Source: a virus. Taken from it: a DNA stretch of 64,000 bases. This document shows positions 1,876 to 52,984 of this stretch, one piece after another (within the stretch, counting starts at the first letter, position 1; the number at the start of each line of letters is the position of its first letter). The stretch covers positions 30,134-94,133 of IMG/VR virus record IMGVR_UViG_3300042453_004683. The stretch is one strand, 5' to 3'. The translations under genes and the position numbers were made by a program. Below the pieces are notes generated by a model. It had not been told where the DNA came from. It did no database searches and saw only the letters and a program-made list of their open reading frames with translations.

Positions 1876-1979
1876 CGACGACGATCCTCTGGTGAGGGGA
1901 GCCGTTGCCTAACCCGGCTTGACGCCCGGCGCCTCCCGCGGTAGTCGTGTGGTGTTCCTGTCCAGGAGGATCTACGTCG

Positions 1980-2852: not shown

Positions 2853-2909
2853 CGGGTTGCCCGCCGTGGGCGGCCGCGTTACGGGTGATGCGAGGAGATA
2901 CCTTCTACA

Positions 2910-23469: not shown

Positions 23470-23618
23470 GCGAGTTCCTGGTGCTCACCGGCATGGCGTG
23501 CTACGTCGTGGCCGGCGTCTGGTGGTCCGAGTTCGCTCGGATCACGCTCGACCAGCGGGTCGCGCGCCGGTTGGTGTGGGCAGTCATCGTCCCCGTCATC
23601 CTCTGCAATCTTCCCTGA
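23466..23618 (+). CDS. 50-aa membrane peptide (not in the ORF track)
   Basis: GTGA overlap; two hydrophobic stretches. Confidence 0.5.
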   Translation: MSEFLVLTGMACYVVAGVWWSEFARITLDQRVARRLVWAVIVPVILCNLP

Positions 23619-23632
23619 CAGGATCCCCGCTT

Positions 23633-24520
23633 ATGTTGACCATCGAACTCGACTACCTCGGCGTCCTCGGCAACCTCGTCGAACTGGCAGGGTCCGGTCA
23701 CGTCCGCCGCGGGCGAACCTCGACCCCGTGGGTGTCATTGTCGGCGCCCATCTTCATCGACTTCTACGTCGGCGCCGGCTGCCGGCTGCCGCTCCTGACC
23801 ACCAAGAAGATGCACACGCGCAGCATCCTCGCCGAGCTGGTCTGGTTCCTGCGCGGCGACACCAACGTGCGCTGGCTCCAGGCGCACGGCGTCACCATCT
23901 GGGACGAGTGGGCCGACGCCGCCGGCAACCTCGGCCCCGTCTACGGCCACCAGTGGCGGCGCTGGCGCGACGAGCGCAGCGGCACCAGCATCGACCAGGT
24001 GCAGCGCGTCATCGACGGCTGGCTTCGCGACCCCTACGACCGCGGCCTGGTCGTGTCCGCCTGGAACGTGGCCGACCTCGGCTCGATGGCGCTCCGTCCG
24101 TGCCACTACGCATGGCAGATCACCTGCCCGGAGCCGGGCGTGATGGACATCCACGTTCAGCAGCGCAGCGCCGACTGGTTCCTCGGCGTGCCGTACAACC
24201 TGGCCTCGTACTCGGCGCTCCTGATCCTGCTCGCCAAGGCGGTCGGCGTCACGCCAGGCACCGTCTGGTGGAGCGGGGCCGACTGCCACCTGTACCTGAA
24301 CCACGTCGAGGCCGCGCAGCGGCAGTTGGCGGTGCGGGCTGCGGCGCTGGAGAGCGCGTTCACGGGCACGGACAGGTACACCGCCCCGTGCCTCGTCGTC
24401 TCGGACGAGGCCGACATCTACTACGCCGTCACCGACGAGGGCGCGTTGACGCTGGACATGTTCGAGGTGACCGGCTACAACCCCGTGGGCCCGGTGATCC
24501 GTGCGCCCGTCGCCGTGTAG
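23633..24520 (+). CDS. thyA: thymidylate synthase
   Basis: LPLLTTKK, ELVWFLRG, IWDEWAD, LGPVYG, MALRPCH, QRSADWFLGVPYN, DCHLYLNH. Confidence 0.95.
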   Translation: MLTIELDYLGVLGNLVELAGSGHVRRGRTSTPWVSLSAPIFIDFYVGAGCRLPLLTTKKMHTRSILAELVWFLRGDTNVRWLQAHGVTIWDEWADAAGNLGPVYGHQWRRWRDERSGTSIDQVQRVIDGWLRDPYDRGLVVSAWNVADLGSMALRPCHYAWQITCPEPGVMDIHVQQRSADWFLGVPYNLASYSALLILLAKAVGVTPGTVWWSGADCHLYLNHVEAAQRQLAVRAAALESAFTGTDRYTAPCLVVSDEADIYYAVTDEGALTLDMFEVTGYNPVGPVIRAPVAV

Positions 24521-26289: not shown

Positions 26290-26382
26290 GGTTGACGGCG
26301 GTGGAGGGCCGAGGTACTTGTGTGGAAGCGGCGGGCAGCGAACCCGCCGGGCACCCGACCCCGCAACACCAGGAGAACACGC

Positions 26383-30662: not shown

Positions 30663-32051
30663 CTACCCGCTGCCGAACAGCGCCCCGCGGAAGCTGTAGC
30701 CGAGGATCGCCGTCTGCCGGCCCCCGATGATGAACTCACGGGCGGTCTGGCAGGCGGCGATCCAGTCGTTTCCGGCGGCGGCGCGCTTGCCCGTGGCGGA
30801 CACGTCCACCAGGACGAGCCCCTCCTCCGCCCACTGGCGGAGCAGGACGTTGGCGTTGTTGCCCGTCTCGCGCGCCCACTGGAGCATCTTCGGCGCGGTG
30901 ACGAACCCGTCCTCGCCAGGCGACACGGGCCACGCCCCAACGAGCGTCTCCTGCCCGCTGTAGCCGAGGCCAAGCACCCGGCTCGGCTGGCTCGCCATCC
31001 AGGACAGCAGGCCCGCGAGGGCGTGCGCGCCCCGGTCTGTGGCGCCCGCGGTCACCGCGACGCAGGACCGCAGCTCCTCGATGAGCGCGAGAGTGTCGAC
31101 GGGAGCAGCGATCGTGGCGTCGGCGTTCACCATCTCGGCTGCCAGCGCGATGAGCGCGGCGTACCGCGCGACCCGCCGGACGGTCGCATCCGTCTCGGCT
31201 GTACCACCGGCAAACACCGTATGCCACTTGGCGAACTGCCCGACCAGGCGGTTGAGCCCGCCGTCCTTCGACCGGACGATGCGAACTGCGGCGACGGCGA
31301 AACGCTGCCCGATGTGCCCGCTGCCGGCGGCGATCTGCACCTTCAGCGCGGCGACGTCCCGGCCGGCCTCGGCGGATACGCCCCCGAAAGGCGACCGCGG
31401 CAGTGGCAGCAGGCGCGCCTTGGCCCCCGTCCGCGTGCGGGTGAGGTTGAGCAGCAGCTCCTCGTTGGTCGAGGCCGCGATGGAGTGCCACTCGCGGACG
31501 CCTCCCGTCGCGTCGTGCGTGAACCTCCCCTCCTGGAAGGCGTACACGAAGTCGAGGAACGTGGCCGCGCCGCCCTTGTCGGTGCGCGCCTGCCCCTCGT
31601 TGACCAGGAGCGGCAGGTTGCGGAGGACGGCCGCGTGCCGGAGGAGCGCCGCGTCCTTGGTGCGCCAGCTCTCGCGGAGGCAGCCGGGCGCGCCCCACAT
31701 GCTCTCCATCGCGGAGAGCGCCACGGTCTTCCCGGTGCCGGACGGTCCGCCGATGTCGAGCACGAAGGGCTCGATGTCCGCCCCGGCCTCGCGGAGCGGC
31801 TCGATGAGGATGGACGCGAGGCTGGCGAGGCACGCGACCTGGAGGCCCGGGTAGCGGCGGACGATCTCCCAGGCGGCGACCGACGCGGACGGGTCGCCCG
31901 TCGGGCGGATCTTGCTGTACGGGAACGTCGACCGCGCCGGCGGGATGAACTTCGGCGCGTGCGGCATCGCCGGTCCGAGGCGAAGCGCGGGCAGCATGAA
32001 GTGGCCGGTCGGCTGGAACCCGTAGTGGTGCGTCTTGCTTTGATCTGCCAT
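30663..32051 (-). CDS. DUF927-type replicative helicase/ATPase
   Basis: GPSGTGKT, SWRT, LPLLVNE, ASTNE and ARLL motifs; possibly leaderless (TATGCT 6 nt before the ATG). Confidence 0.8.
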   Translation of the reverse strand: MADQSKTHHYGFQPTGHFMLPALRLGPAMPHAPKFIPPARSTFPYSKIRPTGDPSASVAAWEIVRRYPGLQVACLASLASILIEPLREAGADIEPFVLDIGGPSGTGKTVALSAMESMWGAPGCLRESWRTKDAALLRHAAVLRNLPLLVNEGQARTDKGGAATFLDFVYAFQEGRFTHDATGGVREWHSIAASTNEELLLNLTRTRTGAKARLLPLPRSPFGGVSAEAGRDVAALKVQIAAGSGHIGQRFAVAAVRIVRSKDGGLNRLVGQFAKWHTVFAGGTAETDATVRRVARYAALIALAAEMVNADATIAAPVDTLALIEELRSCVAVTAGATDRGAHALAGLLSWMASQPSRVLGLGYSGQETLVGAWPVSPGEDGFVTAPKMLQWARETGNNANVLLRQWAEEGLVLVDVSATGKRAAAGNDWIAACQTAREFIIGGRQTAILGYSFRGALFGSG

Positions 32052-33243: not shown

Positions 33244-35220
33244 ATGATCCCCCTCTACGGCAACCCGCACGCGACCTTCACCGTCCGGGCGTCACCGACT
33301 TCGCTGATCGACCTGCGCTCCCTGGTCCCTGGCGTCCTCGTCCACGGCAAGGGCGCCCGGCGGTGGGTCAACGTGACGGCCCTTCGGCCGTGGGATCACC
33401 GTGCGGACGGCCCCGAGCCGTTGACGTCGCGCCTCACGGTCGCGGCGCCTGGCGTCACGCTGATCGAGGGGCACCTCCGCGCCCGCGGCCTCGCCTTCGA
33501 CGTCAAGGTGAGCGGCGACCTGGAGCCGCTGTCCCGCGGCGGCAAGGACGTCAGCGACGCCATCGTCGGCCCGCTCATCGAGCGAGGCCGCACCGGCATC
33601 CGACGTCTCGCGGACGAGGGCTGGGTCCGCACCGGTCTCGCCGAGCGGGTCTACCCGATGCAGGCCGAGTTGGTCGGCCGCATCGAGGGCGGCGCGCGGG
33701 CGCTCCTGCTCGTCTGGCCCGGCGGCTCGGGCAAGACCTGGGCTGCGCTGCTGGCGGCGTTCACGGCGATGTCACTCACCCGGGCGCCCATCGTCTGCGT
33801 CGTCCCCTCGAATGTCCGCCCCGGCTGGGCGCGGGACGCGGCGCGGATCACCGACACGGAGATCCATGTCTGCCTCCCGTCGTCGAAGGGTGGCGGCGCG
33901 ATCGGGCTGCACGCTTACCTGGAGCGGATGGCGGAGGCCGGCCGGCCGCCCATCCTGGTCGTCGGCCAGGAGCACCTCGCGTACTGGATGAACTTCATCC
34001 CCGACGTCAAGCCCGGCGTCGTCATCTTCGACGAGATCGACACCATCGCCAACCGCTCGCTGTACGACGTCAAGTACCGCGCGGACGGCGAGGTCGACAT
34101 CAGCTTCAAGACCACGGCTGGTGGTGTGGCCGCCCGCGGCGCGGCTGCGGTGGCGCTCACCATGCTACCGTCAGTGAAGGTCCGCGTGGGCCTGACCGCC
34201 ACGCCCTTGTGGAACGGCATCCCCGAGAAGCTGTGGGGCGTCGCGCACCTCGTCTGGCCCGGCGTCTTCGGCTTCGGCTTCTACGACTACGGGCTGCGGT
34301 ACTGCGGCGGCGCGGTGCCCGAGGGTGGCTTCGGCGTCACCTACGACAAGCCCACCAACCTCGCCGAGCTGAAGCGGCGGTGTACGTGGTTCGTCCACTA
34401 CGTCTCCTACGCGGAGAGCCACGGACACCTCCAGCCCCTGGTCTACAAGGTGTCCACCGTGCCGGTCGAGGAGCAGGACAAGTCGGTCCGCTTCTCGGAG
34501 GACCTGACCTGGGGGCAGGCCATCAAGGCGGCGGCCAAGGGCGCGGTCACGGATGACACCGGCGCGGTCTACGGCGTCGATGGTGGAGACACCAACCCTG
34601 GGGCGTCCACCTACGAGCTGACCCTCGCGCACGCCTGCGCGCTGAAGCGGTCGGCGGTCGTCGAGCGTGCGGTGTCGACCGCGATGGGCGGCGGCAAGGT
34701 GATCGTGGCGGTCGGCCGCATCGCCGAGGCGCGGGCGTGGACGCTGGCGATCGAGACGGCGCTGACGCGGCGGACGCCGAAGGGCGCGGCGCACCCGCCT
34801 CGGACCTGGATGATGATCGGCGACGGCTCCACCGTCGAGGACCGGATGGCTGCGCTCGACGCCTGGATCGCCTACGAGGGCGGTGCTGTCGGCATCATCA
34901 CCTACCAGGCGATGGGCGCTGGCGTGAACGGGATGCAGGTGGCGGACCACTTCATCATCGCGCAGCTCCCGCCCACCGGGCGCGACCTGGAGCAGCTCAT
35001 CAAGCGCGCCGACCGCGCCGACCGGAAGAAGTCGATCTTGTTGGAGATCGTGATCGCCGAGAACACCCGCGAGGTCGACCACCTGAAGCGGCAGGCGGAG
35101 AACTACAAGGCGTTCGCCGCGTTCCTGGGCGACGCCAACTTCGAGGCGGTCGCCGACATCCTGGCGCCGAAGCGGTCGTACGAGGAAACATTGAGCAGCT
35201 TCCTTGACGGCCTGTTCTAA
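33244..35220 (+). CDS. superfamily 2 (SNF2-like) helicase
   Basis: GSGKT, FDEID, LTATP, GAGVNG, QLIKRADR. Confidence 0.85.
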   Translation: MIPLYGNPHATFTVRASPTSLIDLRSLVPGVLVHGKGARRWVNVTALRPWDHRADGPEPLTSRLTVAAPGVTLIEGHLRARGLAFDVKVSGDLEPLSRGGKDVSDAIVGPLIERGRTGIRRLADEGWVRTGLAERVYPMQAELVGRIEGGARALLLVWPGGSGKTWAALLAAFTAMSLTRAPIVCVVPSNVRPGWARDAARITDTEIHVCLPSSKGGGAIGLHAYLERMAEAGRPPILVVGQEHLAYWMNFIPDVKPGVVIFDEIDTIANRSLYDVKYRADGEVDISFKTTAGGVAARGAAAVALTMLPSVKVRVGLTATPLWNGIPEKLWGVAHLVWPGVFGFGFYDYGLRYCGGAVPEGGFGVTYDKPTNLAELKRRCTWFVHYVSYAESHGHLQPLVYKVSTVPVEEQDKSVRFSEDLTWGQAIKAAAKGAVTDDTGAVYGVDGGDTNPGASTYELTLAHACALKRSAVVERAVSTAMGGGKVIVAVGRIAEARAWTLAIETALTRRTPKGAAHPPRTWMMIGDGSTVEDRMAALDAWIAYEGGAVGIITYQAMGAGVNGMQVADHFIIAQLPPTGRDLEQLIKRADRADRKKSILLEIVIAENTREVDHLKRQAENYKAFAAFLGDANFEAVADILAPKRSYEETLSSFLDGLF

Positions 35221-35780: not shown

Positions 35781-36853
35781 CCAACTTCTTCGACAAGATG
35801 CGTGCGCGGATCGTCGAGCCCGACATCGCGCAGCACGCCGGCGCTGTCGGAGCCGGCACCACCGTGCTCAACGCCTCCACCAGCCTCCGCGGCTGGTCCT
35901 ACTACGGCCCGTTCATGGCCTGCCCGTACCTGTGGGCGATGACGCGGCTCGGCGGCGCGCGGGAGGAGGAGACGACGCCGCTCGCCCGCGGGAGCATGGG
36001 CCACCTGCTCCTCGCCCACCTCGCCATCCACGAGGAGGCCGAGAAGAACATCGGCCCTGTTCGTGCGAACAACGTGCTCGTCGGCGCGGCGGAGGCGGCG
36101 GACTACGCCTCGCCCGTGGCCGCGCTGCGGACGGCGAGCAAGGGCAACCCCGCGTGGAGCCGCGAACTGGTCCACATGCTCCGCGTGTTCGACGGCTACC
36201 TCCGCACGCGCGAGCTGCCCGAACACAACACCATCGAGGTCGAGAGCGAGCTGGTCGGCGTCGTCGGCACCCGCGGCAAGCGCCCCGGGCTCTACCTGGT
36301 CGCGCCGTCCGAGTGGGACGCGCTGAAGGCGGGCGCGCCGCTCGACCGCTACCGCGCCTTCGACGGCGGCACCATCGAGGTCGCCCCCGAGCAGCGGGCC
36401 GGCGGCAAGACCGTCTACATCTCGCGGCGGCTGGACGCGGTGTGGCTCACGCCCGATGGCGTCGAGGTCGTCGACCACAAGCACAAGTCGAAGATCCACG
36501 GCGCGACCGCGGTGTCCGGCTACCTCACCGACGGCGGCTTCACCGCGATGGCGGTCCTGGCGGCGCAGGCGTGGCCCGACCGCTTCCGGTCGATCACGCT
36601 CAACCTGGTTAGCACCAACGACGACAACCTCGGCCACAACCGGATCGTGCGCCTGCCGCGCGACCCGCAGCAGGAGGCCCGGTTCTGGCGCGACCTGCTG
36701 ATGACGGCCGTCCAGATGGAGGCCGTGGCGGCCGTGGCGGCGCGCCCCGACGACTACCCGCGGAAGCGGTTGGAGGAGGTTGGCGGCGCGTGCAACTCGC
36801 GTTATGGGCGCTGCGGTCTGTACGACCGCTGCCACCCAATCAAGACGCCATAG
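35777..36853 (+). CDS. Cas4/RecB-like PD-(D/E)XK exonuclease with an Fe-S staple
   Basis: CP, RGSMGH, RLDAV, VVDHK, and three C-terminal Cys. Confidence 0.85.
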   Translation: MTNFFDKMRARIVEPDIAQHAGAVGAGTTVLNASTSLRGWSYYGPFMACPYLWAMTRLGGAREEETTPLARGSMGHLLLAHLAIHEEAEKNIGPVRANNVLVGAAEAADYASPVAALRTASKGNPAWSRELVHMLRVFDGYLRTRELPEHNTIEVESELVGVVGTRGKRPGLYLVAPSEWDALKAGAPLDRYRAFDGGTIEVAPEQRAGGKTVYISRRLDAVWLTPDGVEVVDHKHKSKIHGATAVSGYLTDGGFTAMAVLAAQAWPDRFRSITLNLVSTNDDNLGHNRIVRLPRDPQQEARFWRDLLMTAVQMEAVAAVAARPDDYPRKRLEEVGGACNSRYGRCGLYDRCHPIKTP

Positions 36854-36866
36854 GAGGGCAACGCCG

Positions 36867-37973
36867 ATGAGCACCGCCCCTGAGTACGGATACGTCAGCA
36901 ACCGCACGCGCAACGGCAACGTCGACGCGCTGATCATCTACGGCCCGCCCGGCGTGGGCGGGACCACCGCCGCCGTCCTGGCCGACCCGAGCGCGCTCGT
37001 GTTCGGCGCGCCCCAGCACGTCCTGCCGGCCTTCAGGCTGGCGGGCAACGACCGCCCGCGGCTCGCCTCCTACTCCAAGCTGGAGGCGTGGAAGGACCGG
37101 GCGAACTGGAACCTGGTCGATCTGAAGGGCGCGCTGGAGATGCTGGCGCGCACGCGCCACAAGGAGCCCGGCTTCGTCACCATCTACTGCGACGACTTCA
37201 GCGAGATGGGCGCGAACACGATGGACTTCCTGGAGGTGCTCGCGCTCAGCAACTCCGAGGCAGGCAAGCCCTTCCGCACCAACGCCGGCAAGGTCCACAC
37301 GGACTCCATCTTCCGTGAGGTCGGTGCGCTCGCCCGCGGCATCATCAAGCAGGCGGCCGACGTCGGCGTGAACCTCATCCTGCGCTGCCACGAGCGGCAG
37401 CCGGGCGAGGGCAAGAACAGCCAGACCAACAAGGCGACCTGGTACCCGGGCGGACCGAAGCTGCCGAGCCGGAACATGGGCACCTCGCTCCAGCCCTACG
37501 TCTCCACGCAGCTCCGCGTCACCCGCAACCGGGACTTCACCGACCCGCTCAGCCTGCCCGGCCGGCCGTACAGCAGCCTGATGTCCTGCTACCCGCCCGA
37601 CGCGGCCTACGCGACGCGGGACCGCTGGGACATCCTGCCCGGCTCGGCGCCGCTCAGCCTCGTCGCGTACATGTACGAGGCTGGCACGCTCCCGGTGATC
37701 GCCGGCCGCGAGTGGATGATCGAGGAGATGCTCAAGGTGAGCGACACCTTGACGGCCCGGCTCGGCAGCGGTTACACCCAGGACGTGATCGCCGCCACCG
37801 CCAACGAGCACCTCGCCACCGCGACCGCCTCCGGGCTGACGCGGACGCAGGCGCGCCTGACGTGGCAGGCCGGCTGGTCGCTCGCGGTCATGCGGGCGCA
37901 GCGCGACGCGATCATCCCGCCTTTCGACTTGCCGATCCCCGGCGAGGCGGATAGCGGGGCAAGCGACTACTGA
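36867..37973 (+). CDS. Sak4/AAA_24-like recombination ATPase with a degenerate Walker A
   Basis: IIYGPPGVGGTT, IYCDDFS, LILRCHE; lies between the exonuclease and SSB. Confidence 0.75.
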   Translation: MSTAPEYGYVSNRTRNGNVDALIIYGPPGVGGTTAAVLADPSALVFGAPQHVLPAFRLAGNDRPRLASYSKLEAWKDRANWNLVDLKGALEMLARTRHKEPGFVTIYCDDFSEMGANTMDFLEVLALSNSEAGKPFRTNAGKVHTDSIFREVGALARGIIKQAADVGVNLILRCHERQPGEGKNSQTNKATWYPGGPKLPSRNMGTSLQPYVSTQLRVTRNRDFTDPLSLPGRPYSSLMSCYPPDAAYATRDRWDILPGSAPLSLVAYMYEAGTLPVIAGREWMIEEMLKVSDTLTARLGSGYTQDVIAATANEHLATATASGLTRTQARLTWQAGWSLAVMRAQRDAIIPPFDLPIPGEADSGASDY

Positions 37974-38941: not shown

Positions 38942-39871
38942 ATGGCATCCGCCTCCACTCACAACGGCGTCCCGCTACTGTTCCGCTACCCTGGGGCCAA
39001 GGGCCGCGCCATCATGGCGTACGGCGCCGCCTACAAGGCGCAGGCCGCCGGCGTCAACCACCTCATCATCCCGTTCGCCGGGTCGCTGGCGGAGCCACTC
39101 TGGCTGCTCGCCGAGGGCGCGCTCCAGGACGACGTGACGCTCGACGTCAACGACGCGAACCCGCACGTCGCCAACCTCTGGCGAGCGGTCACGACCGACG
39201 GCGCCCTGCTCGCCGAGCTGACGCGCGACCTCGTGTGCGAGTGGAACGAGATGCCGATCGACCGTGACACGCGCGTGGCCGCCTTCAAGGCGCTCCGCGG
39301 GCAGGTCAACCAGACGGTGTTCGGGGCGGCCCCGACGGCGGGCCTCTACGGCAGCACGCTCCAGGCGGCGAGGTTCCTTCTGTTCCAGGCCACCGGCTAC
39401 AACGGTCTGTTCCGCGTGAACAGCGCCGGGAAGATCAACACGCCCTACGGCACCGAGAAGGACAAGACCCCGCGGCAGCTCAACGTCGAAGCCCACGTCC
39501 AGAGCATCCAGGCGGCGGTGCGGCTGCTCGACAGGTGCAGCGTGCGGGTCACCTGCAAGGACTGGCGCGACACGCTGGTGTTCGACCCCGGCAGAGCCGC
39601 CGAGGACACCCTCGTCATCGCGGACCCTCCGTATCATGGTACGTTCAGCACCTACACGGCCGACGGCTTCGCCGACACGGACCACATCGAGCTGGTCCAG
39701 ACGCTCGCCGACGCGCCCTGCCGGGCCATCGTGACCAACAGCCCGTCGGCGCGCTCGCTGTTCGACGACCGCTGGGACGTCAGCGACCACGAGGTCCGGC
39801 GGTCCATCGCGCCGACGGCGAAGGGCCGCGGCGACGCGGGCGAGATCCTGGCCGTCAAGCGGGTGGGGTAG
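38942..39871 (+). CDS. Dam-like (D12 class) N6-adenine methyltransferase
   Basis: RYPGAK, PFAGS, NDAN, GYNGLFRVNSAGKINTPYG, DPPY. Confidence 0.9.
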   Translation: MASASTHNGVPLLFRYPGAKGRAIMAYGAAYKAQAAGVNHLIIPFAGSLAEPLWLLAEGALQDDVTLDVNDANPHVANLWRAVTTDGALLAELTRDLVCEWNEMPIDRDTRVAAFKALRGQVNQTVFGAAPTAGLYGSTLQAARFLLFQATGYNGLFRVNSAGKINTPYGTEKDKTPRQLNVEAHVQSIQAAVRLLDRCSVRVTCKDWRDTLVFDPGRAAEDTLVIADPPYHGTFSTYTADGFADTDHIELVQTLADAPCRAIVTNSPSARSLFDDRWDVSDHEVRRSIAPTAKGRGDAGEILAVKRVG

Positions 39872-39875
39872 CCCG

Positions 39876-42824
39876 ATGACGTGCTCCTTCAACGGCGCGA
39901 AGTGTGACGTCTGCCCGCTCGGCCCGAAGGGCCCGCTCCGGGACGCCGACCGCCCCTGGCAGCCCGTCGCCCACGAGGATCACCGCATGAGCGGCGCGGA
40001 GATCATCGCGGTGCATCAGGCGCCCGAGATCGAGGACGAGAAGCGAGGCAGCCTGCTGTCCGGCCGGAACGGCGGCACCTGGGCGCGCGGCCTCAACAAC
40101 GCGGGCCTCCGCCGCGTGGACGTCAGCTCGACCACGGTGATCGCGTGTGCACCGCCCGGCGCGCCAGGCGGCGCCTACCGCCGGATGGAGGACATGCTCC
40201 GGCGGCTCAACAAGCGGGCCGCCAAGGAGGGGCTGCCGTCCTGGCCGCACCCGCGGGACTGTTGCCGACCGCGCCTGGAGATCGACCTGCTCGGCTACAA
40301 GAACGTCCTGCTCATGGGCAAGACCGCGGCGGTCGCGCTCGCGGGCCTCAACCGCGACATCAAGAAGACCCGCGGCGCGCCCATCGGCATCGACGAGGGT
40401 TGGCAGGCGGTCCCGCACGACAGCGACCGGGCGGTCCACCTCGCGCTGCCGACGCTCGACGTCTCCTTCGTCGCCAAGAACGGACACTTCGTGTCCGTGT
40501 GGGTGCGCGACATCGCCAAGGCGCGGCGGCTGTTCGAGGGCGCGTTGCGCTGGCGCGACCCCGAGATGCTCTGGCGGCCGACGCCGGACGAGCTGCGCTT
40601 CTGGCTCCGCGGCTTCAACGGCTGTCCCGACAAGACCGCCGTGTTCGACGTGGAGACGTCCCGCCACCACCAGGGGATGCGGCCCCGCGCGCTGAAGCTC
40701 TACACGCTGTCCATCGCGCGTTGGAGCAAGCACGGCGAGGGCTCCACGATGGAGGCCGTCGGCATCGAGTTCATGGACCCGTCGACCGGCGTGAGGTGGT
40801 ACACGCCGGAGGCGGAGGCGGAGATCAAGGACCTGCTCCGGCGGTTCTTCACCGAGCAGCGCATCCCGAAGATGGGCCACAACGCCGGGATGTTCGACCG
40901 CGCCGTGATCGAGGAGCACTTTGGCGTCACGCCCGTGCCGCTGATCGACAGCATCTTCGCCACGCGGGCGGCGAACCCGGGGCTGCCGAAGGGCCTCAAG
41001 CCGACGGGGCGGACGTTCACGGACGTCGGCGAGTGGGACAGCGACGACAAGGACGAGGACGGCGGCGGCGCGGACAGCAAGAACGCGACCACGCTGTTGC
41101 GGTACAACATGATGGACTGCGCGGTCAACCTCGCGCTGTGGCCCACCGTCCGCGACATCGCCGCCCGTGCGGGCTACTACACGCCCATCCGGCAGGACCT
41201 GGCGGACATGATGCTCCCGCCCGAGCGGCGGGGGCAGCCGCTCACGCTCAACGAGATCGACCACGCGGCGCAGGACCGCGGCCTCCGCATGACCGACGCC
41301 GGGCTCTGGATCGACCAGCGCCTCCGGGCGGCGATGCAGGAGGACGCCGAGAAGCAGGCGGCCACCATCCTCCGGCTCCTCCAGGCGCGGCTGAAGGCAG
41401 CGGGCGCGGCCGTCCTTGCCGATGCCGACCTCGACATCGAGGAGGACGACGATGGCGTCGAGATGAACCCGAACTCGACCGCGAGGTTGCGCGCGCTCTA
41501 CTTCGGTCCGCCGGACGAGGGCGGGTGGGACCTCCCGTTCCTGCCCAGCGAGGGCGGCGTGGACAGCGCGGGCAAGCCCCTCTACAGCCGCAAGGACTTC
41601 CTGACGGGCACAGGGGACATGTCCACGTCGGACGCGGTGCACCGCGCGTACCTCGCCAGCGGCGTGCTCCGGCCGGACCAGTTCGAGATCATGTACCTGG
41701 TCCGCGTGTACCGGCGGATCAAGACCAAGATCGTCGGCACCACGCTCCGGCCACTGGCGCCCGAGCAGCCCATCTACAAGGCAGGTGTCCTCCGCGGCTT
41801 CACGAAGTCGTGGGTCCACGGCGACAACCGCGTCCACAGCATCTTCTCGGCGCACGTCACCAATGTGGGACGTTACGCAAGTAGTTCGACAAACGTCATG
41901 AACGTCGGCAACAAGAAGGGGCAGGGGCTCCTCAAGACCGTGTTCGCTGCGCCGCCGGGCTACTTCTTCGTCGGCGCGGACCTGAACCAGGCGCACCTGT
42001 TCATCATCGCCAACGTCTGGCAGATCCCCGCGCTGTGCGAGGCCATCGCCAACGGCTACGACCCGCACAACTTCAACGCCTCGACCACGTTCGGGCGGAC
42101 CTTCACGGAGGCGCCCGGCTACAACGGCCTCAAGGACAAGCCCTCCAAGGGCACTCCCGCAGAGGCCATGCGGAACGTCATCAAGACGTTCATCTACGCT
42201 TCCGTCTACGGCGCCATGCCCGAGACCATCTGGCGCGTGCTCACCTCGACGGAGACGGACCCTCCCCCGGCGTGGCTTGACCGAGTGCTCTCGCGCGACG
42301 ACCAGCTCAACATCAAGGAGCTGGTCCGGCAGACGATGCCCTACCTGCTGAAGTCGCTGGACGACGTGAGGATGATCCACGAGAACTGGCTCAAGGGCCA
42401 GCCCGAGTGGCTGGACGCCTGGCAGCGGGAGATCGACTTCTACTCCAAGCACGGCTACGTCCAGTCCTACCTGTTCGGGCGGCGGTCGGGCGACCTCGGC
42501 GAGGACCAGAACAAGGTCACGAACTTCGGCGTGCTTGCGACGGAGAGCGACATCATGCGGATCGTCGAGAGCCGCATCGACCGCGAGTTCCCGGGCAAGA
42601 TCGTCTACCAGTGCCACGACAGCGCGGCGATCTGCCTCCCGCTGCCCGCGGGCTACGCGCCCGACTGGCGGCCGGCGAAGGACGCCAAGGGCAAGTACGT
42701 GTGGCCGGCCGAGTTCGAGGAGGTGCGCCGGCGGTTCGAGGCGTGCTTCCACGTCCAGGTCCCGGGCTGGCGCTTCCCGATCAGCGGTGAGGCGGCCCTC
42801 GGCTTCAACCTCCACGAGGTTTGA
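39876..42824 (+). CDS. polA: family A DNA polymerase with an N-terminal family-4 UDG-like domain and a 3'-5' exonuclease
   Basis: CxxC Fe-S UDG-like N-terminus; FDVET, GHNAGMFD, YNMMD exonuclease motifs; GADLNQAH, KTFIYASVYG, CHDS polymerase motifs. Confidence 0.92.
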   Translation: MTCSFNGAKCDVCPLGPKGPLRDADRPWQPVAHEDHRMSGAEIIAVHQAPEIEDEKRGSLLSGRNGGTWARGLNNAGLRRVDVSSTTVIACAPPGAPGGAYRRMEDMLRRLNKRAAKEGLPSWPHPRDCCRPRLEIDLLGYKNVLLMGKTAAVALAGLNRDIKKTRGAPIGIDEGWQAVPHDSDRAVHLALPTLDVSFVAKNGHFVSVWVRDIAKARRLFEGALRWRDPEMLWRPTPDELRFWLRGFNGCPDKTAVFDVETSRHHQGMRPRALKLYTLSIARWSKHGEGSTMEAVGIEFMDPSTGVRWYTPEAEAEIKDLLRRFFTEQRIPKMGHNAGMFDRAVIEEHFGVTPVPLIDSIFATRAANPGLPKGLKPTGRTFTDVGEWDSDDKDEDGGGADSKNATTLLRYNMMDCAVNLALWPTVRDIAARAGYYTPIRQDLADMMLPPERRGQPLTLNEIDHAAQDRGLRMTDAGLWIDQRLRAAMQEDAEKQAATILRLLQARLKAAGAAVLADADLDIEEDDDGVEMNPNSTARLRALYFGPPDEGGWDLPFLPSEGGVDSAGKPLYSRKDFLTGTGDMSTSDAVHRAYLASGVLRPDQFEIMYLVRVYRRIKTKIVGTTLRPLAPEQPIYKAGVLRGFTKSWVHGDNRVHSIFSAHVTNVGRYASSSTNVMNVGNKKGQGLLKTVFAAPPGYFFVGADLNQAHLFIIANVWQIPALCEAIANGYDPHNFNASTTFGRTFTEAPGYNGLKDKPSKGTPAEAMRNVIKTFIYASVYGAMPETIWRVLTSTETDPPPAWLDRVLSRDDQLNIKELVRQTMPYLLKSLDDVRMIHENWLKGQPEWLDAWQREIDFYSKHGYVQSYLFGRRSGDLGEDQNKVTNFGVLATESDIMRIVESRIDREFPGKIVYQCHDSAAICLPLPAGYAPDWRPAKDAKGKYVWPAEFEEVRRRFEACFHVQVPGWRFPISGEAALGFNLHEV

Positions 42825-42920
42825 TCGGTTTCGTGCTTGTTTGTCCTTGCGGCTGCCGCAGGGACCAGATACTCCTGGTGTGCTGGGGGCCGGAGCCCCC
42901 GCCACACAGGAGAGCAACCG

Positions 42921-43409
42921 ATGCCGAAGTCCCTGGTCCTCAACAGCAAGCAGGCGTCCGACCTCGCGGGCGACGCCCTGCGCATCCACATCCACCGCGC
43001 GATGGTCGACATCCCGGGCGAGTACGACATCGCCGGCGAGGTCTTCCTCAGCAAGGCCGGCGAGTTCGGCGGCTTCAAGGGCTGGCTGCCCTGGGTGCTC
43101 GGCCACGACGCCTTCGGCCAGCCGCGCTACGACCGCTTCGTCCTGGTGGACGAGGGGCAGGTCGCTGGCGTCGGCGACGCCACGGCCGTCGTCCGGGTGG
43201 ACATGGCGGAGGGCTGCCGGATCATCCTGCCCGACGTCACGCACAAGCTGGTGCTGGCGGCGCAGGAGGCGGGCCGCGAGGTCAACGTGATCATCGGCGG
43301 CTCCCCGCTCCTCATCGGCAAGCACATCGACACCATCTCCATCCCGAGCGGCAAGACCACGAAGGCCGGCAAGGACATCCTCAACACCATCCACCTCTGG
43401 AGCTTCTGA
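42921..43409 (+). CDS. hypothetical protein
   Basis: AGGAG RBS; promoter at 42847-42875. Confidence 0.75.
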   Translation: MPKSLVLNSKQASDLAGDALRIHIHRAMVDIPGEYDIAGEVFLSKAGEFGGFKGWLPWVLGHDAFGQPRYDRFVLVDEGQVAGVGDATAVVRVDMAEGCRIILPDVTHKLVLAAQEAGREVNVIIGGSPLLIGKHIDTISIPSGKTTKAGKDILNTIHLWSF

Positions 43410-43414
43410 TCACC

Positions 43415-45757
<2,343 letters not shown>

Positions 45758-45806: not shown

Positions 45807-46274
45807 CTACCGCCCCGTCGACCCGAAGCCCCCGGACCCCCGGGGGCTCTTGGCGTCCTGGACCAGCCCGTCGATGTCGATGTCGGCGACCTGGGCGAAC
45901 ACGACCTGGGCGATGCGGTCGCCCGGCTGGATGTAGTGACTGGGAAGGAGGAGGTGGTTGAAGCGCACCCGCTGGAGGATCACGCCGACCTCGCCTTCGT
46001 AGTCGCTGTCGATGGTGCCGGGCGCGTTGAGGACGGTGATGCCGTGCTTGGCGGCGAGGCCAGAGCGGGGGCGGATCTGCGCCTCGTAGCCGGGCGGGAT
46101 GCTGAAGCGGAGGCCGGTGCGGATGACGCGGACGTCGCCGGTGAACATCTCGGCACCCTCGGCCGCGCAGATGTCGAAGCCGGCGGCGCCGGCGGTCGCG
46201 CGCACCAGCGGGAAGGCGGCGCGGCCCTCGGCCAGCGCGTCGGGGTGCTGCTCGATGATGAACTGCGGAAGCAT
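45807..46274 (-). CDS. dut: trimeric dUTPase
   Basis: AGFDI, RSGLA, GTIDSDYEG, GDRIAQ, RGSGGFGSTG. Confidence 0.95.
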   Translation of the reverse strand: MLPQFIIEQHPDALAEGRAAFPLVRATAGAAGFDICAAEGAEMFTGDVRVIRTGLRFSIPPGYEAQIRPRSGLAAKHGITVLNAPGTIDSDYEGEVGVILQRVRFNHLLLPSHYIQPGDRIAQVVFAQVADIDIDGLVQDAKSPRGSGGFGSTGR

Positions 46275-46353
46275 GTTGACGTTCTCCAGGCGCCGAGGTA
46301 GAAGGATGGTAGCTGGCGCCGCTGGAAGCGTAACCCGCCAGCAGGAGAACGGC

Positions 46354-46740
46354 ATGGACAACGACATCGAGAAGCGCCTCGCGAGCCTCACCCCCTTCGC
46401 CCGCGAGCAGGTCGACAGCACCTGGCTCGGCGGCACGCCGAAGCGGGACTGGCTGATCGTCGGCCTGCTGCTGGAGACGCTGGAGGACCTGCTGGTGCGG
46501 TTCTGCGAGCGGTTCCATGACAAGGGGCACGGCGAGTGGGAGTACGACGTGATCTTCATGGACGACGGGAACGTGCGCGTGCGCGTTGTCCTCAGCGACA
46601 CCTACTCCGAGGGGCGTCAGACCTACGACAAGGGGAACCCCATCGACGCACTCGTCGACCAGATCAACGCCTTCGCCCTCCGCCTGGAGCCGACCGACCA
46701 GGAGAAGCGGGACGACGCAGAGGTGTCCGCGGCGTGTTAG
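46354..46740 (+). CDS. acidic hypothetical protein
   Basis: AGGAG RBS; promoter at 46276-46304. Confidence 0.7.
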   Translation: MDNDIEKRLASLTPFAREQVDSTWLGGTPKRDWLIVGLLLETLEDLLVRFCERFHDKGHGEWEYDVIFMDDGNVRVRVVLSDTYSEGRQTYDKGNPIDALVDQINAFALRLEPTDQEKRDDAEVSAAC

Positions 46741-46765
46741 ACTGACCTCCTCCAAGGGGCGCCTC

Positions 46766-47296
46766 ATGGGCCGACGCTCAGCGTTTCCACGCAAGAGCCA
46801 GTGGGCAACCGCGTTCACCGACGCGAGCTACGACTGGCGGACTGGAACGGGGGGCGTCGGCATCGTCCTGATGCTCTACGACGCCGACGGCCGGACGCAC
46901 ACGGAGACGTTCACGGCGCCGGTGCCGCTGTCGCACGCCAAGAGGCGGCACCAGATCGACCCGCTGTACGCCGAGATGTACGGCTGCGTCCTCGGCATCC
47001 AGGTCGCGCTCGACCTGTGGTGGCACGACATCCAGGGCGTCCACCTCCGGTGCGACAACAAGAACGCCATCGACCTGCTCACGCGGGCCGAGCGCCTGTG
47101 CCGCAAGGGGCCGAGCGTGCCGTGCGCCGCCTTCGACGCGCTCACGCCCCGGCCCGACATCCAGGAGCTGCTGATCTGGCGCGCGTCGCTACCGACCCTG
47201 GTGTCGCCCCGCTGGGTTCCAGGTCACCAGAAGTCGGCGTCGAAGGCGGCCAAGGCGAACCGGATGGCCGACCGCCTCAGCCGCATGGCCGGGTAG
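46766..47296 (+). CDS. rnhA: ribonuclease HI-like protein
   Basis: FTDAS, AEMYG, RCDN, WVPGH, NRMADRL (D-E-D-D active site). Confidence 0.85.
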   Translation: MGRRSAFPRKSQWATAFTDASYDWRTGTGGVGIVLMLYDADGRTHTETFTAPVPLSHAKRRHQIDPLYAEMYGCVLGIQVALDLWWHDIQGVHLRCDNKNAIDLLTRAERLCRKGPSVPCAAFDALTPRPDIQELLIWRASLPTLVSPRWVPGHQKSASKAAKANRMADRLSRMAG

Positions 47297-48641: not shown

Positions 48642-51600
48642 CTACACGATCGAGCAGGCGCCGGAGGTGCAGGCGAACGTCTGTTGGCCCTCGGCGAAGC
48701 CGTTCTCGAACGACGCCATCCGCGACCAGTCCACCTCCGGCAGCGACGCCAGCCGGGCCTCGTACTCGGCCTCGGTGATCTCCTCCAGCGGGGCGCCGTA
48801 GTAGACGTGATCGTCGTACGGGAAGAACGACAGGCCGCCGATCTTGTCCAGGTGCTCGAACACCCACGCGCCCACCTCGTCCCACTCGTGCTCGCGGACG
48901 TTGACGGTCGCGGACTGGTTGTGGCCCTTGACCGCCAGCCAGGAGCGGTTGAGCAGGTCGATGCGCTCCAGCATCTGGATCGCCGTCTCGTCCTCGCGCG
49001 TGAAGGCCCCTTCCGGCGCTCGGACCGGGACCTCGAACGTCCACCCTCCCACGGCCTCCGGGGCCAAGGAACCGGCCTCCAGAGCCGCGGCGACACCCTC
49101 CCCGGTCGGGATGCACGGGACGCCCGCCGCGCGCAGGAGCGCGCACACCGGCGACCGCGCCGACACCTGGAAGCGTCGGATGTAGAACAGCGCGTGGTGC
49201 GCGTGGACGCCCGACGAACAGCCCAGGAACACGCTGCTGTTGCCGTCCGGCTTGCCGCAGGTGAGCCCGGCCGCCTCGTTGATCCCGAAGCGCGCCGCCC
49301 AGGTGAGGTTCGCGCGCTCGACGCAGGCGTTCATCAGCGTGAGCGTGGCCTCGTTCGTGCTGATGTGCAGCGCGTCCACCTGGCCGGCGAGGCCGACGCC
49401 GAGGAGCGCGTCGCGGCGGGTGACCTCCTCCCAGCCCTTGCGCACGCCCGGGAAGTTGGTGAGGCACGCCTGCATGGTGCCGATGAAGGCGGCGAGGTCG
49501 GCCTTCCGCAGCGCGGTGACACCGTTGTCGTGCGGCCGGAGGACGATGTTGCTGAGATTGCACTGGAACGTGAGCGTGTTGTTGAACACGCCCATGTGGC
49601 GCTCGCTCTCCTCGAAGCAGTATGTGTCATGCAGCCCGGGGAGCGCCTCGATCGACCGGATGGTCTGGTACTTCGACTTGAACTTCGGCGCGTGACCTCC
49701 GCTGGTGTCGAGGCGCTTGCACGGGATGTCGGCGCAGTCGGTGATGCAGATGTAGTAGAGGTTCCGCGAGCGGGTGCCGTAGTTCGTGACGGCGCCCTCC
49801 TCGGCGAACAGGCTGATCGACGAGCGGATGCCGCACCGGGTCAGAAGAAGCTGCACCTTCTTGGCGTGCTCCTCGCCGCTCAGGTAGAGCCGGACGCCGC
49901 CCTTGCCGTTCTTGCTGCCATCGGTGTCCAACCAGCCCGCGATGAAGGCCAGGATCGACTCGCGGCTCCAGGTGAACATGGCATCGAGCGCGCTCGCGTC
50001 AGCGCGGATCGCCGCCATCTCGGCAACTGGAACGGTGACGCAGCGAACGGTCTGCTTGTCAACGGCGTAGCCCGCAGGGCGGCGGCGCTTGTGGCGGACA
50101 CCCTCCAAGGGGATCTTGTCGATCTTCGCGCCCATCAGAGCGACGTGGACCGACTCTGAGGTGAAGTTCTTGCGCGCACGCCGCTGAATGTAGCCGTCAC
50201 CGATGGCGACTCCGAGATCGTAGGCGTACGGCACCGAGGTTCCGTCGGCGAGATCCATACGGAACTGAGGGGTGGCCCAGGTCTTGTCGCCGACGCTGGC
50301 CGCCAGTTCCGCCGTGGTCATCTCGCGCCACGCCTGCTTCGTGTTCCGCGTGTAGATGTTCGACACGAGGAAGCGATGCCCGCCCGTGCAGTCCAGGTGG
50401 GAGCCGTCCGAGAACTTGACACGGAACAGCGGCTGATCCGTCCCGGTCTGGAACGGCTGGACCTTCGCCCACTTCTCGCCGTTCCAGATGTGGACGGGCT
50501 TGCCGACGGCATCCTTGATCGTCGTCAGACCTTCACGGGTAATCAGCGGCGTGTCGCCGGCGACGCACAACTGGCCCCCGCCCGAGGAGTAGTCGCCGGT
50601 GCGAGACGCCATCTCCAGCGCGTCCAGCCACGCCAGCCAGATCTCCATGCACGGGTTCCCGCGCACGGGGACGCCGCGGTACAGCGCCCGCGTCGTGTTC
50701 ACGATGCCGCGCTCGCCCGCGCCGCTGGAGCGGAGGATCTCCCACTCGCGGCTGAAGTCCGTCCACGTCACCTCGTCGCCCGGCTCGATGACCCAGGAGT
50801 TGTTCGCCTGGTACCGCTGCTCGGGGATGGTGGTGCCGTTGGCCGCCGCCGACGGGTAGTGCTTGGCCCACCGCATGTCGTCGTCGTCGCGGTCGCTGAA
50901 CGAGATCATCGCCGACCGGCGGACGCCTCCGACCTGGACGATGCTGCCCGCGAGGCAGAGGAGGTCGTGGACCTCGACCGGCGCCAGCTTCCGCTTCTCG
51001 TAGCCGGCCGTGCGGATCGCCTCGCGGAGCGCCATCAGGTACTTGCGCAGCGGCTCCGGCCCGCTCGCCTCACCGCCCTTGGTCTTGAGCGGCGTCCCCT
51101 CGGCGCGGACGCGGCTGTAGTCGAAGTCCACGTCGCCGCCCATGAACCACGCCCGGACGCCGACGGCGGTCGCGCGCCGCCAGCCATCGGTGCTGTCCTC
51201 GATGACGTGCCGCGGGATCGCGCAGACCTGCGGGACCGCCGGCTGGGGCAGCTTGCTGACGAACTTCCGCTCGACGCTGAAGCCGAAGCCGGTGCCCTGC
51301 ATCAGCACGAACAGCGCCTCGGAGAAGATGGCGGGGCTGTCGGCGGGCGCGAAGGCACAGTTTCCGGTGACGAGGCCGGACGGCAGCACGAAGGAGTGGT
51401 CGTCCTCGACAACAAGGCACCACACGGGCTCCACGGCGTCCTCGACGATCTCCCGCGCGCGGAAGTTGCCGCTGGTGCCCGGGTAGAAGCCCTGGCTGAG
51501 GCCGAAGAACGACGTGGTGGGCCGCGTTCCGTAGTTGGTCGTCTGCCCGGTCAGGTCACGCTCCGCGGTGACGTAGCAGCCCACCGACGGGAACATCGAC

Positions 51601-52694
51601 CGGATGAACTCGATCCCGTCTTCGTTGCTGGACTGGATCGAAAGGAAGCGGCCCTCGCGCCCCTCCTTGTAGTTGACGGCGCCGTCGGCGTCCAAGTAAC
51701 CACGGATGAACGCGGTCAACTCGGCGATGTTCTCGGCGCCACCTTCGGGGAGGGTCTTGAGGTAGGATCCGAAGTAGAGGAGCGCATCACCGTTGAAGGA
51801 GGGCGGCGAGCAGTGACCGCACCCGAGCGCCTTGAAGCGGTCGAAGAAGCGCATCTTGTTGCCGCACAGGCGCACCGCGGACTGATGGTACTCCCCTCTG
51901 GAGTTCTTGAGCAGGGTGCCGTCGCCATACACGAAGCCCCGGGCCCACGCGATCTTCTCGTTCTCGGGTGCGGTAGCGTAGTCCCACCGGGAGACGATCT
52001 CGGGCGGAGGGAGGATGGCGTCGCCCACGCGGAGGTTCGTGGTGCGGCTGCCATCCGCCAGGAGCCACTGGTGATCGGCCGTCGCTCGCACGGTGACGGT
52101 TCCGCGGCCACGGGAGAAGCGGATCTTGTAGAGGCGCTGCTCGCCGAAGCAGCGGACGACGGCGGGCTTGTACGCTCCAGTGTGCGTCAGGACGCGCACC
52201 GTGTCACCGTCGTTGAAGTCGGCGAAGCTACGCACGCCCTGGTCGGTGATGAACTCCGTCTCAACCCCCAGACAGTTGTAGCTCGCCAGGTCGTTGACCT
52301 CCAGGACGTCGCCGGCGGCCCACAGGCCGCGCATCGACGGCATCACGTCGCGCAGGAACACGGCGCGGATGGCCTCGACCACCTTCTCGTCGAAGGCGTC
52401 GAGCATGATCAGCCGGGCGGACTTGTTGTCGTGCGCCCCGGCGATCTGCTGGTACATGCGGTGGCGCATGTACGCGCCCCACCGGATGACCGTCTCGCGC
52501 CAGGTCTCGCGGGCACCATCGCTCTTGATCCGGGCGTAGGTCCGCAGCCGGACCGCCTCGCTGGCGAGCCGAGCGCCCGGCGAGAGCGACGCGAGCGCGT
52601 CACCATCGGCGAGATCGGAGAGGGCGTTGGCGACGAACGCCTCGTGAGAGGCGCGGGAGTGGGCCCACTGGAGCCCGATCAGGTCGATGGTCAT
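48642..52694 (-). CDS. nrdJ: class II (B12-dependent) ribonucleotide reductase containing two inteins
   Basis: RTYAR, ETW.E, PSMR, GTGFG, ASGP, VRRSA, NPCMEI, KPDGN, C-terminal CxxxxC. Confidence 0.92.
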   Translation of the reverse strand: MTIDLIGLQWAHSRASHEAFVANALSDLADGDALASLSPGARLASEAVRLRTYARIKSDGARETWRETVIRWGAYMRHRMYQQIAGAHDNKSARLIMLDAFDEKVVEAIRAVFLRDVMPSMRGLWAAGDVLEVNDLASYNCLGVETEFITDQGVRSFADFNDGDTVRVLTHTGAYKPAVVRCFGEQRLYKIRFSRGRGTVTVRATADHQWLLADGSRTTNLRVGDAILPPPEIVSRWDYATAPENEKIAWARGFVYGDGTLLKNSRGEYHQSAVRLCGNKMRFFDRFKALGCGHCSPPSFNGDALLYFGSYLKTLPEGGAENIAELTAFIRGYLDADGAVNYKEGREGRFLSIQSSNEDGIEFIRSMFPSVGCYVTAERDLTGQTTNYGTRPTTSFFGLSQGFYPGTSGNFRAREIVEDAVEPVWCLVVEDDHSFVLPSGLVTGNCAFAPADSPAIFSEALFVLMQGTGFGFSVERKFVSKLPQPAVPQVCAIPRHVIEDSTDGWRRATAVGVRAWFMGGDVDFDYSRVRAEGTPLKTKGGEASGPEPLRKYLMALREAIRTAGYEKRKLAPVEVHDLLCLAGSIVQVGGVRRSAMISFSDRDDDDMRWAKHYPSAAANGTTIPEQRYQANNSWVIEPGDEVTWTDFSREWEILRSSGAGERGIVNTTRALYRGVPVRGNPCMEIWLAWLDALEMASRTGDYSSGGGQLCVAGDTPLITREGLTTIKDAVGKPVHIWNGEKWAKVQPFQTGTDQPLFRVKFSDGSHLDCTGGHRFLVSNIYTRNTKQAWREMTTAELAASVGDKTWATPQFRMDLADGTSVPYAYDLGVAIGDGYIQRRARKNFTSESVHVALMGAKIDKIPLEGVRHKRRRPAGYAVDKQTVRCVTVPVAEMAAIRADASALDAMFTWSRESILAFIAGWLDTDGSKNGKGGVRLYLSGEEHAKKVQLLLTRCGIRSSISLFAEEGAVTNYGTRSRNLYYICITDCADIPCKRLDTSGGHAPKFKSKYQTIRSIEALPGLHDTYCFEESERHMGVFNNTLTFQCNLSNIVLRPHDNGVTALRKADLAAFIGTMQACLTNFPGVRKGWEEVTRRDALLGVGLAGQVDALHISTNEATLTLMNACVERANLTWAARFGINEAAGLTCGKPDGNSSVFLGCSSGVHAHHALFYIRRFQVSARSPVCALLRAAGVPCIPTGEGVAAALEAGSLAPEAVGGWTFEVPVRAPEGAFTREDETAIQMLERIDLLNRSWLAVKGHNQSATVNVREHEWDEVGAWVFEHLDKIGGLSFFPYDDHVYYGAPLEEITEAEYEARLASLPEVDWSRMASFENGFAEGQQTFACTSGACSIV
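49563..50567 (-). mobile_element. intein 2 (335 aa) with LAGLIDADG endonuclease and C-terminal Gln
   Basis: CVAGDT start; LGVAIGDG and IAGWLDTDG; ends TLTFQ/C. Confidence 0.9.
51360..52274 (-). mobile_element. intein 1 (305 aa) with LAGLIDADG endonuclease
   Basis: CLGVET start; TADH block B; RGFVYGDG and IRGYLDADG; ends LVTGN/C. Confidence 0.9.
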
Positions 52695-52786
52695 GGTGCG
52701 CGGGGGTCCTTGCGGTTGGTGGGATCGTCGGCATGGCCGGCTGGCGGGCGTCGGACGGCGCCCGCTGGCTGCCGTCCCGCACACAC

Positions 52787-52984
52787 CTACAGGCCCTTGT
52801 GCTCTAACAGTCGGAGAGCGGCCTGCCAAGGCCGGAGGGCGCGGTGGAGATCGTCGGCCGCCAGCCGAAGGTCGGCGCGTCGGATGATCTCCGCATGGAG
52901 CTTCGCCTGCTCGGTCTGGAGCGTCGCCTCCTCGGACGGGTCCACCAGTCGGAGGGGTGATGCGGCGAGCGCAGGGCTACCCAT
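52787..52984 (-). CDS. small hypothetical protein
   Basis: GGAGG RBS; overlaps the upstream gene. Confidence 0.55.
   Translation of the reverse strand: MGSPALAASPLRLVDPSEEATLQTEQAKLHAEIIRRADLRLAADDLHRALRPWQAALRLLEHKGL

Follow-up and report, generated by a model that had tools for sequence, protein, structure and literature searches.

A histidine at the steric-gate position and a coupled change of the nucleotide pocket in a clade of phage family A DNA polymerases

How a family A DNA polymerase selects its nucleotides when it lacks both the glutamate of the steric gate and the glutamine that reads the minor groove is the question raised by a gene in the virus record IMGVR_UViG_3300042453_004683 of IMG/VR. 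The window analysed here, 64,000 nucleotides (positions 30,134 to 94,133), comprises the last 64 kb of this 94,133-bp record (~70% GC). The gene encodes P0001, a 982-aa fusion that joins a uracil-DNA glycosylase (UDG)-like domain, a 3'-5' exonuclease and a family A DNA polymerase; its coordinates and those of the other features are collected in Table 1. In the enzymology of E. coli Pol I, E710 and Q849 are textbook residues, and engineering them, as in Taq E615G and similar variants, is a standard route to the synthesis of RNA and xeno nucleic acids (XNA). A preliminary description of the locus had reported a His in place of E710, the loss of Q849 and the gain of a new Glu nearby, and had proposed that these are co-evolved changes which alter sugar or base selectivity.

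P0001 belongs to the family A DNA polymerases, as a variant in which the replaced conserved residues are non-catalytic. It matches PF00476 (DNA_pol_A) with 54 bits against a gathering cut-off of 34.3 as well as phrog_17 (E 1e-55), and the gene call rests on third-position GC (GC3 0.96) and length. The AlphaFold2 model, built on an alignment of 41 relatives, has a mean predicted local distance difference test score (pLDDT) of 89 and a predicted template modelling (TM) score (pTM) of 0.86, and its top PDB matches in Foldseek are Klenow, Bst and Taq with target-normalised TM scores of 0.73-0.79 and E 2e-22. P0001 shares with these enzymes the fold, the catalytic Asp pair and the R/K/Y residues of motif B, but is only ~16% identical to them, adds the UDG-like domain, lacks a 5'-3' exonuclease domain and has replaced the TGR Thr, E710, Q849, A852 and E883. 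The translation of 41979-42625 reads DLNQAHLF ... RNVIKTFIYASVYG ... NFGVLATESD ... QCHDS, and equivalences to Klenow were taken from phmmer and from a 41-sequence profile alignment. Both pair GADLNQAHLF with SADYSQIELR and thus confirm H707 at the position of E710. The profile alignment pairs N-F-P-I-L-A-A-E with Klenow N-A-P-M-Q-G-T-A, which equates L887 with Q849 and E890 with A852, so that the loss of the Gln and the appearance of a Glu hold as first described. The gate Glu, the motif-6 Gln and the TGR Thr, all part of the conserved family A set, are therefore H707, L887 and V664 in P0001. In the model D702 closes a strand and H707 opens the next helix, while a single long helix (878-904) carries N883, L887 and E890 with the spacing i, i+4, i+7.

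The first round of relatives consisted of 80 proteins with 33-99% identity from a 5.8-billion-protein collection. The motif D-[LIV]-[ND]-Q-A-H-[LI] is present in 80/80 of them, and V664, H707, N883, L887, E890 and Q-C-H-D-S are invariant, as are the catalytic residues D702 and D915 and the Lys and Tyr residues of motif B, including the Tyr at position 762 (B3), all of which the preliminary description had found intact. Among 1.84 billion representatives, a search with a profile found 1,339 proteins at E <= 1e-30, and the best 150 of these together with the first-round set, 225 UDG-PolAs, were aligned to the family hidden Markov model (HMM). The positions of E710, Q849 and A852 are occupied by H-[L/I]-E in 146 proteins (His-type) and by [E/D]-[Q/S]-[A/G/C/M/S] in 70 (Glu-type); nine are incomplete with at least one position unresolved, and no protein has any other combination, so that intermediates between the two pockets are absent among the 225 aligned relatives. 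The first residue of the TGR motif follows the same division, with V/P/I/N throughout the His-type proteins and T/S/G/N throughout the Glu-type ones. Ser or Ala is found at the E883 position in both states, which places it outside the coupled set, and Tyr at B3 is likewise shared by both. Judged from the aligned residues, a coupled set of four, V-H-L-E, replaces T-E-Q-A (TGR Thr T666, E710, Q849 and A852).

Because the His stands without exception in the 80 first-round relatives and also in 146 of the 225 wider ones, the His gate is a lineage trait and neither chance nor a read error, the latter having been considered unlikely from the outset. That the His reflects an error of sequencing or assembly, or a polymerase in decay, has next to no probability: such a reading draws on the departure from the consensus and nothing more, and is ruled out by the family-wide conservation, with the same His in 146 proteins from many samples, a 982-aa open frame of high GC3, conserved catalytic and exonuclease residues and no other DNA polymerase found in the record. 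The proposal of co-evolution is strongly supported by the alignment (146 against 70 proteins, 0 mixed) and by its recurrence in a second clade, and it extends to the TGR Thr and is thus stronger than had been claimed. The other half of that proposal, altered sugar or base selectivity, found no support.

The recurrence is seen in the phylogeny. In a FastTree phylogeny of 214 sequences the main His group forms one clade of 135 tips, and in an IQ-TREE phylogeny of 56 sequences from which the four signature columns had been removed it is recovered (27 rows) as one side of a branch with a Shimodaira-Hasegawa approximate likelihood ratio test (SH-aLRT) value of 98. Three further His-type proteins (P0172, P0184 and P0192) are nested in the Glu-type clade as sister to P0197 and P0221, with SH-aLRT values of 99, 95 and 98, and the flanks of their motif A are Glu-like (GADMDQL-H-L versus GADMDQL-E-L). 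Nine columns split the main His clade from the Glu-type enzymes; the small His clade shares exactly the four signature ones, and its remaining five match its Glu-type kin. An approximately unbiased (AU) test of a single His clade gave a log-likelihood difference of 58.6 and p 0.075, which falls short of formally rejecting one origin; two origins of the His-type pocket are indicated by the sequences but not formally proven. A far-reaching reading of this pattern is that V-H-L-E constitutes a second natural solution to nucleotide selection in family A, which arose at least two times and confers a substrate range different in kind (ribonucleotides, 2'-modified nucleotides or bases whose minor-groove edge is altered). 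This would imply a still unknown chemistry of phage DNA or replication intermediates and is unlikely; altered selectivity is, judged on gene context, the less likely outcome and the enzyme is most likely a dNTP (deoxyribonucleoside triphosphate)-specific replicase.

The structures of other family A enzymes offer a rationale for the linkage. In natural ternary complexes of KlenTaq a single water forms hydrogen bonds with O2/N3 of the incoming nucleotide as well as with E615, N750 and Q754, which are the equivalents of E710, N845 and Q849, and the terminal base pair is read in its minor groove by Q754 together with R573 (PMC6125688). In Bst the residues Q797, R615, E658 and D830 are close together and interact electrostatically (PMC10520511). 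Since the KlenTaq and Bst structures place the equivalents of the Glu, the Gln, the TGR Arg and the catalytic Asp together, the residues which switch together would be neighbours in one cluster, and the binding of the same base-reading water by the Glu and Gln equivalents supports a co-evolved rewiring. Histidine gates are known from other polymerase families. In PolD the His has been proven to act as the steric gate, as the H931A substitution abolishes discrimination between dATP and rATP, and it also aids dNTP binding (PMC7708050), while H760 of the E. coli Pol III alpha subunit, a family C enzyme, is a modelled His gate (PMC8485763). These enzymes resemble P0001 in having a His beside C2' of the incoming nucleotide, in P0001 by sequence position only, but their folds are unrelated and the resemblance would be one of functional analogy.

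The best explanation, with a probability of roughly 60%, is a rebuilt V-H-L-E pocket in a replicase that is still dNTP-specific. It is proposed that the imidazole of His707 sits beneath the C2' atom of the sugar and in all likelihood continues to block the 2'-OH, by analogy with PolD and probably Pol III alpha. The carboxylate lost from motif A may be supplied by Glu890, one turn down helix Q, and a spatial substitution of the gate Glu by this Glu of the TESD stretch is the favoured reading. The polar Thr/Gln pair would become a hydrophobic Val/Leu pair and the direct contact of the Gln to the template minor groove would be given up. The exclusion of ribonucleoside triphosphates (rNTPs) would be retained, and the enzyme would stay a dNTP-dependent, DNA-templated replicase within a module of SNF2 helicase, nuclease, AAA_24, DUF669, PolA and SbcC genes. 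A conventional dNTP replicase is favoured because of the His gates of PolD and Pol III alpha, the retention of Tyr at 762, the phage-encoded ribonucleotide reductase (RNR), ThyA and dUTPase and the shared module, and also because P0001 is the only DNA polymerase detected in the record and its proofreading is intact. Weighing against it is the loss of Q849/Q754, which could carry real functional consequences rather than be a neutral rewiring, Q754 of KlenTaq being among the sites least tolerant of substitution (PMC6345897). On the same side stand the lack of a match to a primase domain in the whole 94-kb record with the Pfam models PF01896, PF09250, PF13155 and PF13362, and the CheckV estimate of 48% completeness for the record, so that genes may be missing.

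Proofreading was judged from the DEDDy motifs of the exonuclease domain, whose ExoI pairs with the DTETD motif of Klenow in the profile alignment. These motifs are near-invariant in His-type and Glu-type relatives alike, and P0001 has all of them, which indicates that its proofreading motifs are intact.

Gene context was compared between 80 His-type and 80 Glu-type viral loci, the latter retrieved with an alignment query as the single protein P0154 gave no matches. Both types share an orthologous module of SNF2-type helicase, PD-(D/E)XK nuclease, AAA_24 ATPase and, directly upstream of the polymerase, a DUF669-like protein, with an SbcC-like ATPase downstream; the latter (cluster 3) follows polA in 54 loci of the His type and 49 of the Glu type. 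Context clusters 6 and 14 are unrelated. Cluster 7, a candidate for a His-specific accessory gene (65 versus 0 loci), was rejected since it is homologous to the DUF669-like cluster 8 of the Glu-type loci (hhalign 99.2%).

The preliminary description had considered rNTP tolerance or priming, with no primase visible in the window and an RNase HI nearby. A relaxed gate of this kind would tolerate or use rNTPs and lead to DNA containing ribonucleoside monophosphates (rNMPs), to the extension or synthesis of RNA primers or to primer-independent starts that replace a primase. The canonical gate residue is indeed absent, and the lack of a primase is borne out for the whole record by the four Pfam models, although the record does encode a DUF927 helicase of a primase/helicase family. 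Moreover, changes of the Taq E615G type are cited as creating RNA synthesis activity (cited in PMC6125688). Against this stand a His that exceeds Glu in size and rigidity and serves as a gate elsewhere, the invariant Tyr at 762 as an aromatic gate helper, the intact proofreading motifs, the investment of the phage in an intein-bearing RNR, ThyA and dUTPase, and Glu-type sisters which occupy the same module with no visible change in replisome logic. As for the RNase HI, an RNase H-like open reading frame (ORF) does lie 3.8 kb downstream, but its match is borderline, just under the cut-off of PF00075, and phage replication modules without a 5'-3' exonuclease commonly include an RNase H. A relaxed gate is thus improbable, and more so than the other biochemical alternatives.

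It is also conceivable, if doubtful, that the rewiring alters the checking of the base or the minor groove and not the choice of sugar, with effects on unusual templates (modified bases, lesions or UDG-made abasic sites), fidelity or mismatch extension. Q849/Q754 reads the template base at N3/O2 and, via water, the incoming base, and the Klenow substitutions Q849A, E710A and R668A change error spectra according to a review. Several DNA methyltransferases are encoded in the genome, one Dam-like and directly upstream of the polymerase, one Dcm-like and possibly one of 848 aa that is Eco57I/MmeI-like, and the related UDG-PolAs of T-modified phages incorporate 5-hydroxymethyl-dUTP (5hm-dUTP) (PMC13697223). 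However, N6-methyladenine and 5-methylcytosine sit in the major groove, ThyA and dUTPase score above the equivalog cut-offs for the canonical enzymes, no hypermodification genes and no modification pathway such as that of the T-modified phages were seen among the ORFs scanned, standard metagenome data give normal assemblies of the genomes, and within 10 kb no gene family is specific to the His-type loci, diverged orthologues apart. The presence of RNR, ThyA and dUTPase genes points to a canonical dNTP supply, in keeping with the preferred reading of a dNTP-specific replicase.

Among known systems, the gate Glu, the motif-6 Gln and the TGR Thr are treated as conserved positions in all 19 clusters into which PolAs have been sorted, the steric gate being the highly conserved motif position A2, B3 being the most variable position and the only exception at TGR being one cluster with Ala (Czernecki et al. 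2023, PMC10201439). P0001 resembles the N4-like UDG-PolAs (cluster #17) of lytic phages in combining a family-4 UDG-like domain, a 3'-5' exonuclease and PolA in one chain of 800-1000 aa. Further likenesses are the degenerate UDG catalytic residues of P0001 and the giant ORF of 2,600-3,800 aa in genomes that carry P0001-type enzymes. In contrast, the polymerase of the Schitoviridae phage Kc283 has the gate Glu (ADFNALEDR) and Phe at B3 where P0001 has His and Tyr, and its tblastn match to P0001 is marginal (a 120-aa stretch, 31.8% identity over 13% of the query); P0001 thus has the UDG-like domain of cluster #17 but neither its Phe at B3 nor its sequence clustering with the N4 polymerase. The SPO1-like and SP15-like enzymes of T-modified phages (Missoury et al. 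2026, PMC13697223) likewise fuse UDG, exonuclease and PolA and serve lytic phages as replicative enzymes. They differ in having an active UDG, Insert 1/2 and a C-terminal domain in 1,200-1,400 aa, and in the SP15-like enzyme the sugar packs against a Phe with an E710-type gate (PMC13697223). P0001 has lost the UDG motifs and at 982 aa is too short for the inserts, and no SP15-like chain is among the PDB sequence matches listed for it. The Glu-type UDG-PolAs of uncultured phages (for example P0154 and P0197) are the sister group. They show 30-40% full-length identity and agree with P0001 in their three domains, in Tyr at B3 and in the adjacent replication genes, but carry the canonical T/S-E-Q-A/G set, and their UDG motifs are mostly intact.

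Members of the clade occur almost exclusively on metagenomic viral contigs, which include complete genomes of ~66-74 kb and a ~96.6-kb relative. A tblastn search of 50,697 phage records found nothing above 32% identity and short stretches only, and 185,579 species genomes yielded 2 matches, both in one Myxococcaceae metagenome-assembled genome (MAG), which do not support assignment to a prophage or host. No report of a His at the gate position of family A was found in the literature searched, from which many subscription papers fall outside coverage. A natural family A clade with a His gate, assigned by its position, and a compensated pocket would represent a new variant of interest to polymerase enzymologists and engineers. 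From a large natural clade in which both residues are replaced and defined compensating changes are made, it can be read which combinations are tolerated in evolution. The clade also offers polymerase engineers scaffolds that are ready for use, and its sister enzymes allow a clean test of epistasis. If selectivity proves the same, the Glu gate would be replaceable and His gates convergent in families A, C and D; if it differs, this would hint at an unusual nucleic-acid chemistry in marine and soil phages that form an abundant group.

Table 1. Positions in the window of the polymerase gene, its domains and motifs, and neighbouring genes
Feature	Position	Strand	Remarks
UDG-like/3'-5' exonuclease/family A DNA polymerase fusion gene (P0001)	39876..42824	+	982 aa
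Family-4 UDG-like domain	39876..40565	+	aligns to TM0511 UDG, PF03167
3'-5' exonuclease (DEDDy) motifs	40647..41117	+	ExoI D258/E260, ExoII N336/D341, ExoIII Y410/D414
TGR motif variant V664-G-R666	41865..41873	+	pairs with Klenow T-G-R668
Motif A D702-L-N-Q-A-H707	41979..41996	+	His codon CAC 41994-41996, steric-gate position
Motif B (O helix) R766, K770, Y774 (position 762/B3), Y778	42171..42209	+	all invariant in 80 relatives
Motif 6 (helix Q) N883-F-G-V-L887-A-T-E890	42522..42545	+	Leu at Q849, new Glu one helical turn later
Motif C H914-D915-S916	42615..42623	+	Ser at E883; Q-C-H-D-S pairs with Q-V-H-D-E
Thymidylate synthase (ThyA type)	23498..24520	+	PF00303 E 6e-73; TIGR03284 equivalog 212.6 bits vs 108.35
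DUF927 (Cch/D5-like) helicase	30663..32051	-	phrog_8841 primase/helicase E 6e-33 (helicase part only), PF06048, cluster 9 HMM E 1e-67
SNF2/DEAD-type helicase	33244..35220	+	phrog_62 E 3e-36; context cluster 4 (SNF2-rel, Helicase_C)
AAA_24-type ATPase	36780..37973	+	context cluster 1 HMM E 1.6e-13
D12-class N6-adenine DNA methyltransferase (Dam-like)	38942..39871	+	PF02086 E 4e-13, phrog_56; directly upstream of polA
SbcC/SMC-like ATPase	42821..45757	+	phrog_77, AAA_23; directly downstream of polA, position conserved in relatives
dUTPase, C-terminal half of ORF	45807..46601	-	PF00692 E 3e-23; NF001862 equivalog 134.9 bits vs 103
RNase H-like ORF	46586..47296	+	phrog_531 E 1.7e-8; PF00075 25.5 bits vs 25.8 cut-off
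Ribonucleotide reductase (B12-type hints), intein-interrupted	48642..52829	-	1,395 aa; phrog_367 E 1e-106 in 3 stretches

The UDG-like domain of P0001 gives weak matches to PF03167 (UDG), as does the exonuclease region to PF01612, and the family-4 UDG match covers residues 41-167. Its motif A reads HQAPE instead of GEGPG, with the motif-A Glu replaced by Gln (Q48), the Phe of GRPF by L61 and the His of motif B by D195, and the domain is probably inactive. The majority of both His-type and Glu-type relatives retain the motif Glu, F or L, and the His, and UDG activity seems to have been lost sporadically and independently of the state of the polymerase pocket. Four cysteines (C10, C13, C91 and C130) are invariant, which is consistent with an Fe-S cluster site.

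One of the neighbouring gene calls is ambiguous. BLAST assigns a 488-aa frame at 35387-36853(+) to the PD-(D/E)XK nuclease cluster of the related loci, but this frame overlaps two frames with better codon-position GC, 35289-35780(+) and 36780-37973(+), the latter being the AAA_24 homologue. The DUF927 helicase has 462 aa here, whereas its marine orthologues have ~707 aa and a helix-turn-helix (HTH) domain of the Cch type. The ORF of the RNR contains LAGLIDADG_3, Intein_splicing, RNR_Alpha and RNR-II_ins_dom domains. The 848-aa ORF at 26320-28866(+) has no match in Pfam, PHROG or NCBIfam, and its neighbours in the ESM Atlas are N6-adenine methyltransferases of the Eco57I/MmeI type, a lead only; with the Dam-like gene and a Dcm-like gene (47303-48250) it would make three DNA methyltransferases.

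An open frame at 58614-64000(-) continues at positions 2-4240(-) of the record and runs off both record ends with matching phase (2 nt + 1 nt); provided that the record is circularly permuted, this frame would encode a single protein of ~3,208 aa. A homologous giant open frame of 2,601-3,828 aa is present in 5/5 related viral genomes tested. It has no sequence match in PHROG or the PDB, including the N4 virion RNA polymerase (vRNAP), and a classification as N4-like on the basis of this frame was dropped for this reason. Finally, many polymerases of the clade (P0003, P0011, P0013, P0014 and many of P0084-P0227) are 1,200-2,000 aa long and match the profile in 2-5 stretches. P0003 (1,280 aa), which is 99% identical to P0001, has an insertion of ~298 aa upstream of motif A that P0001 does not have, and the insertions are probably inteins which are present or absent between near-identical phages.

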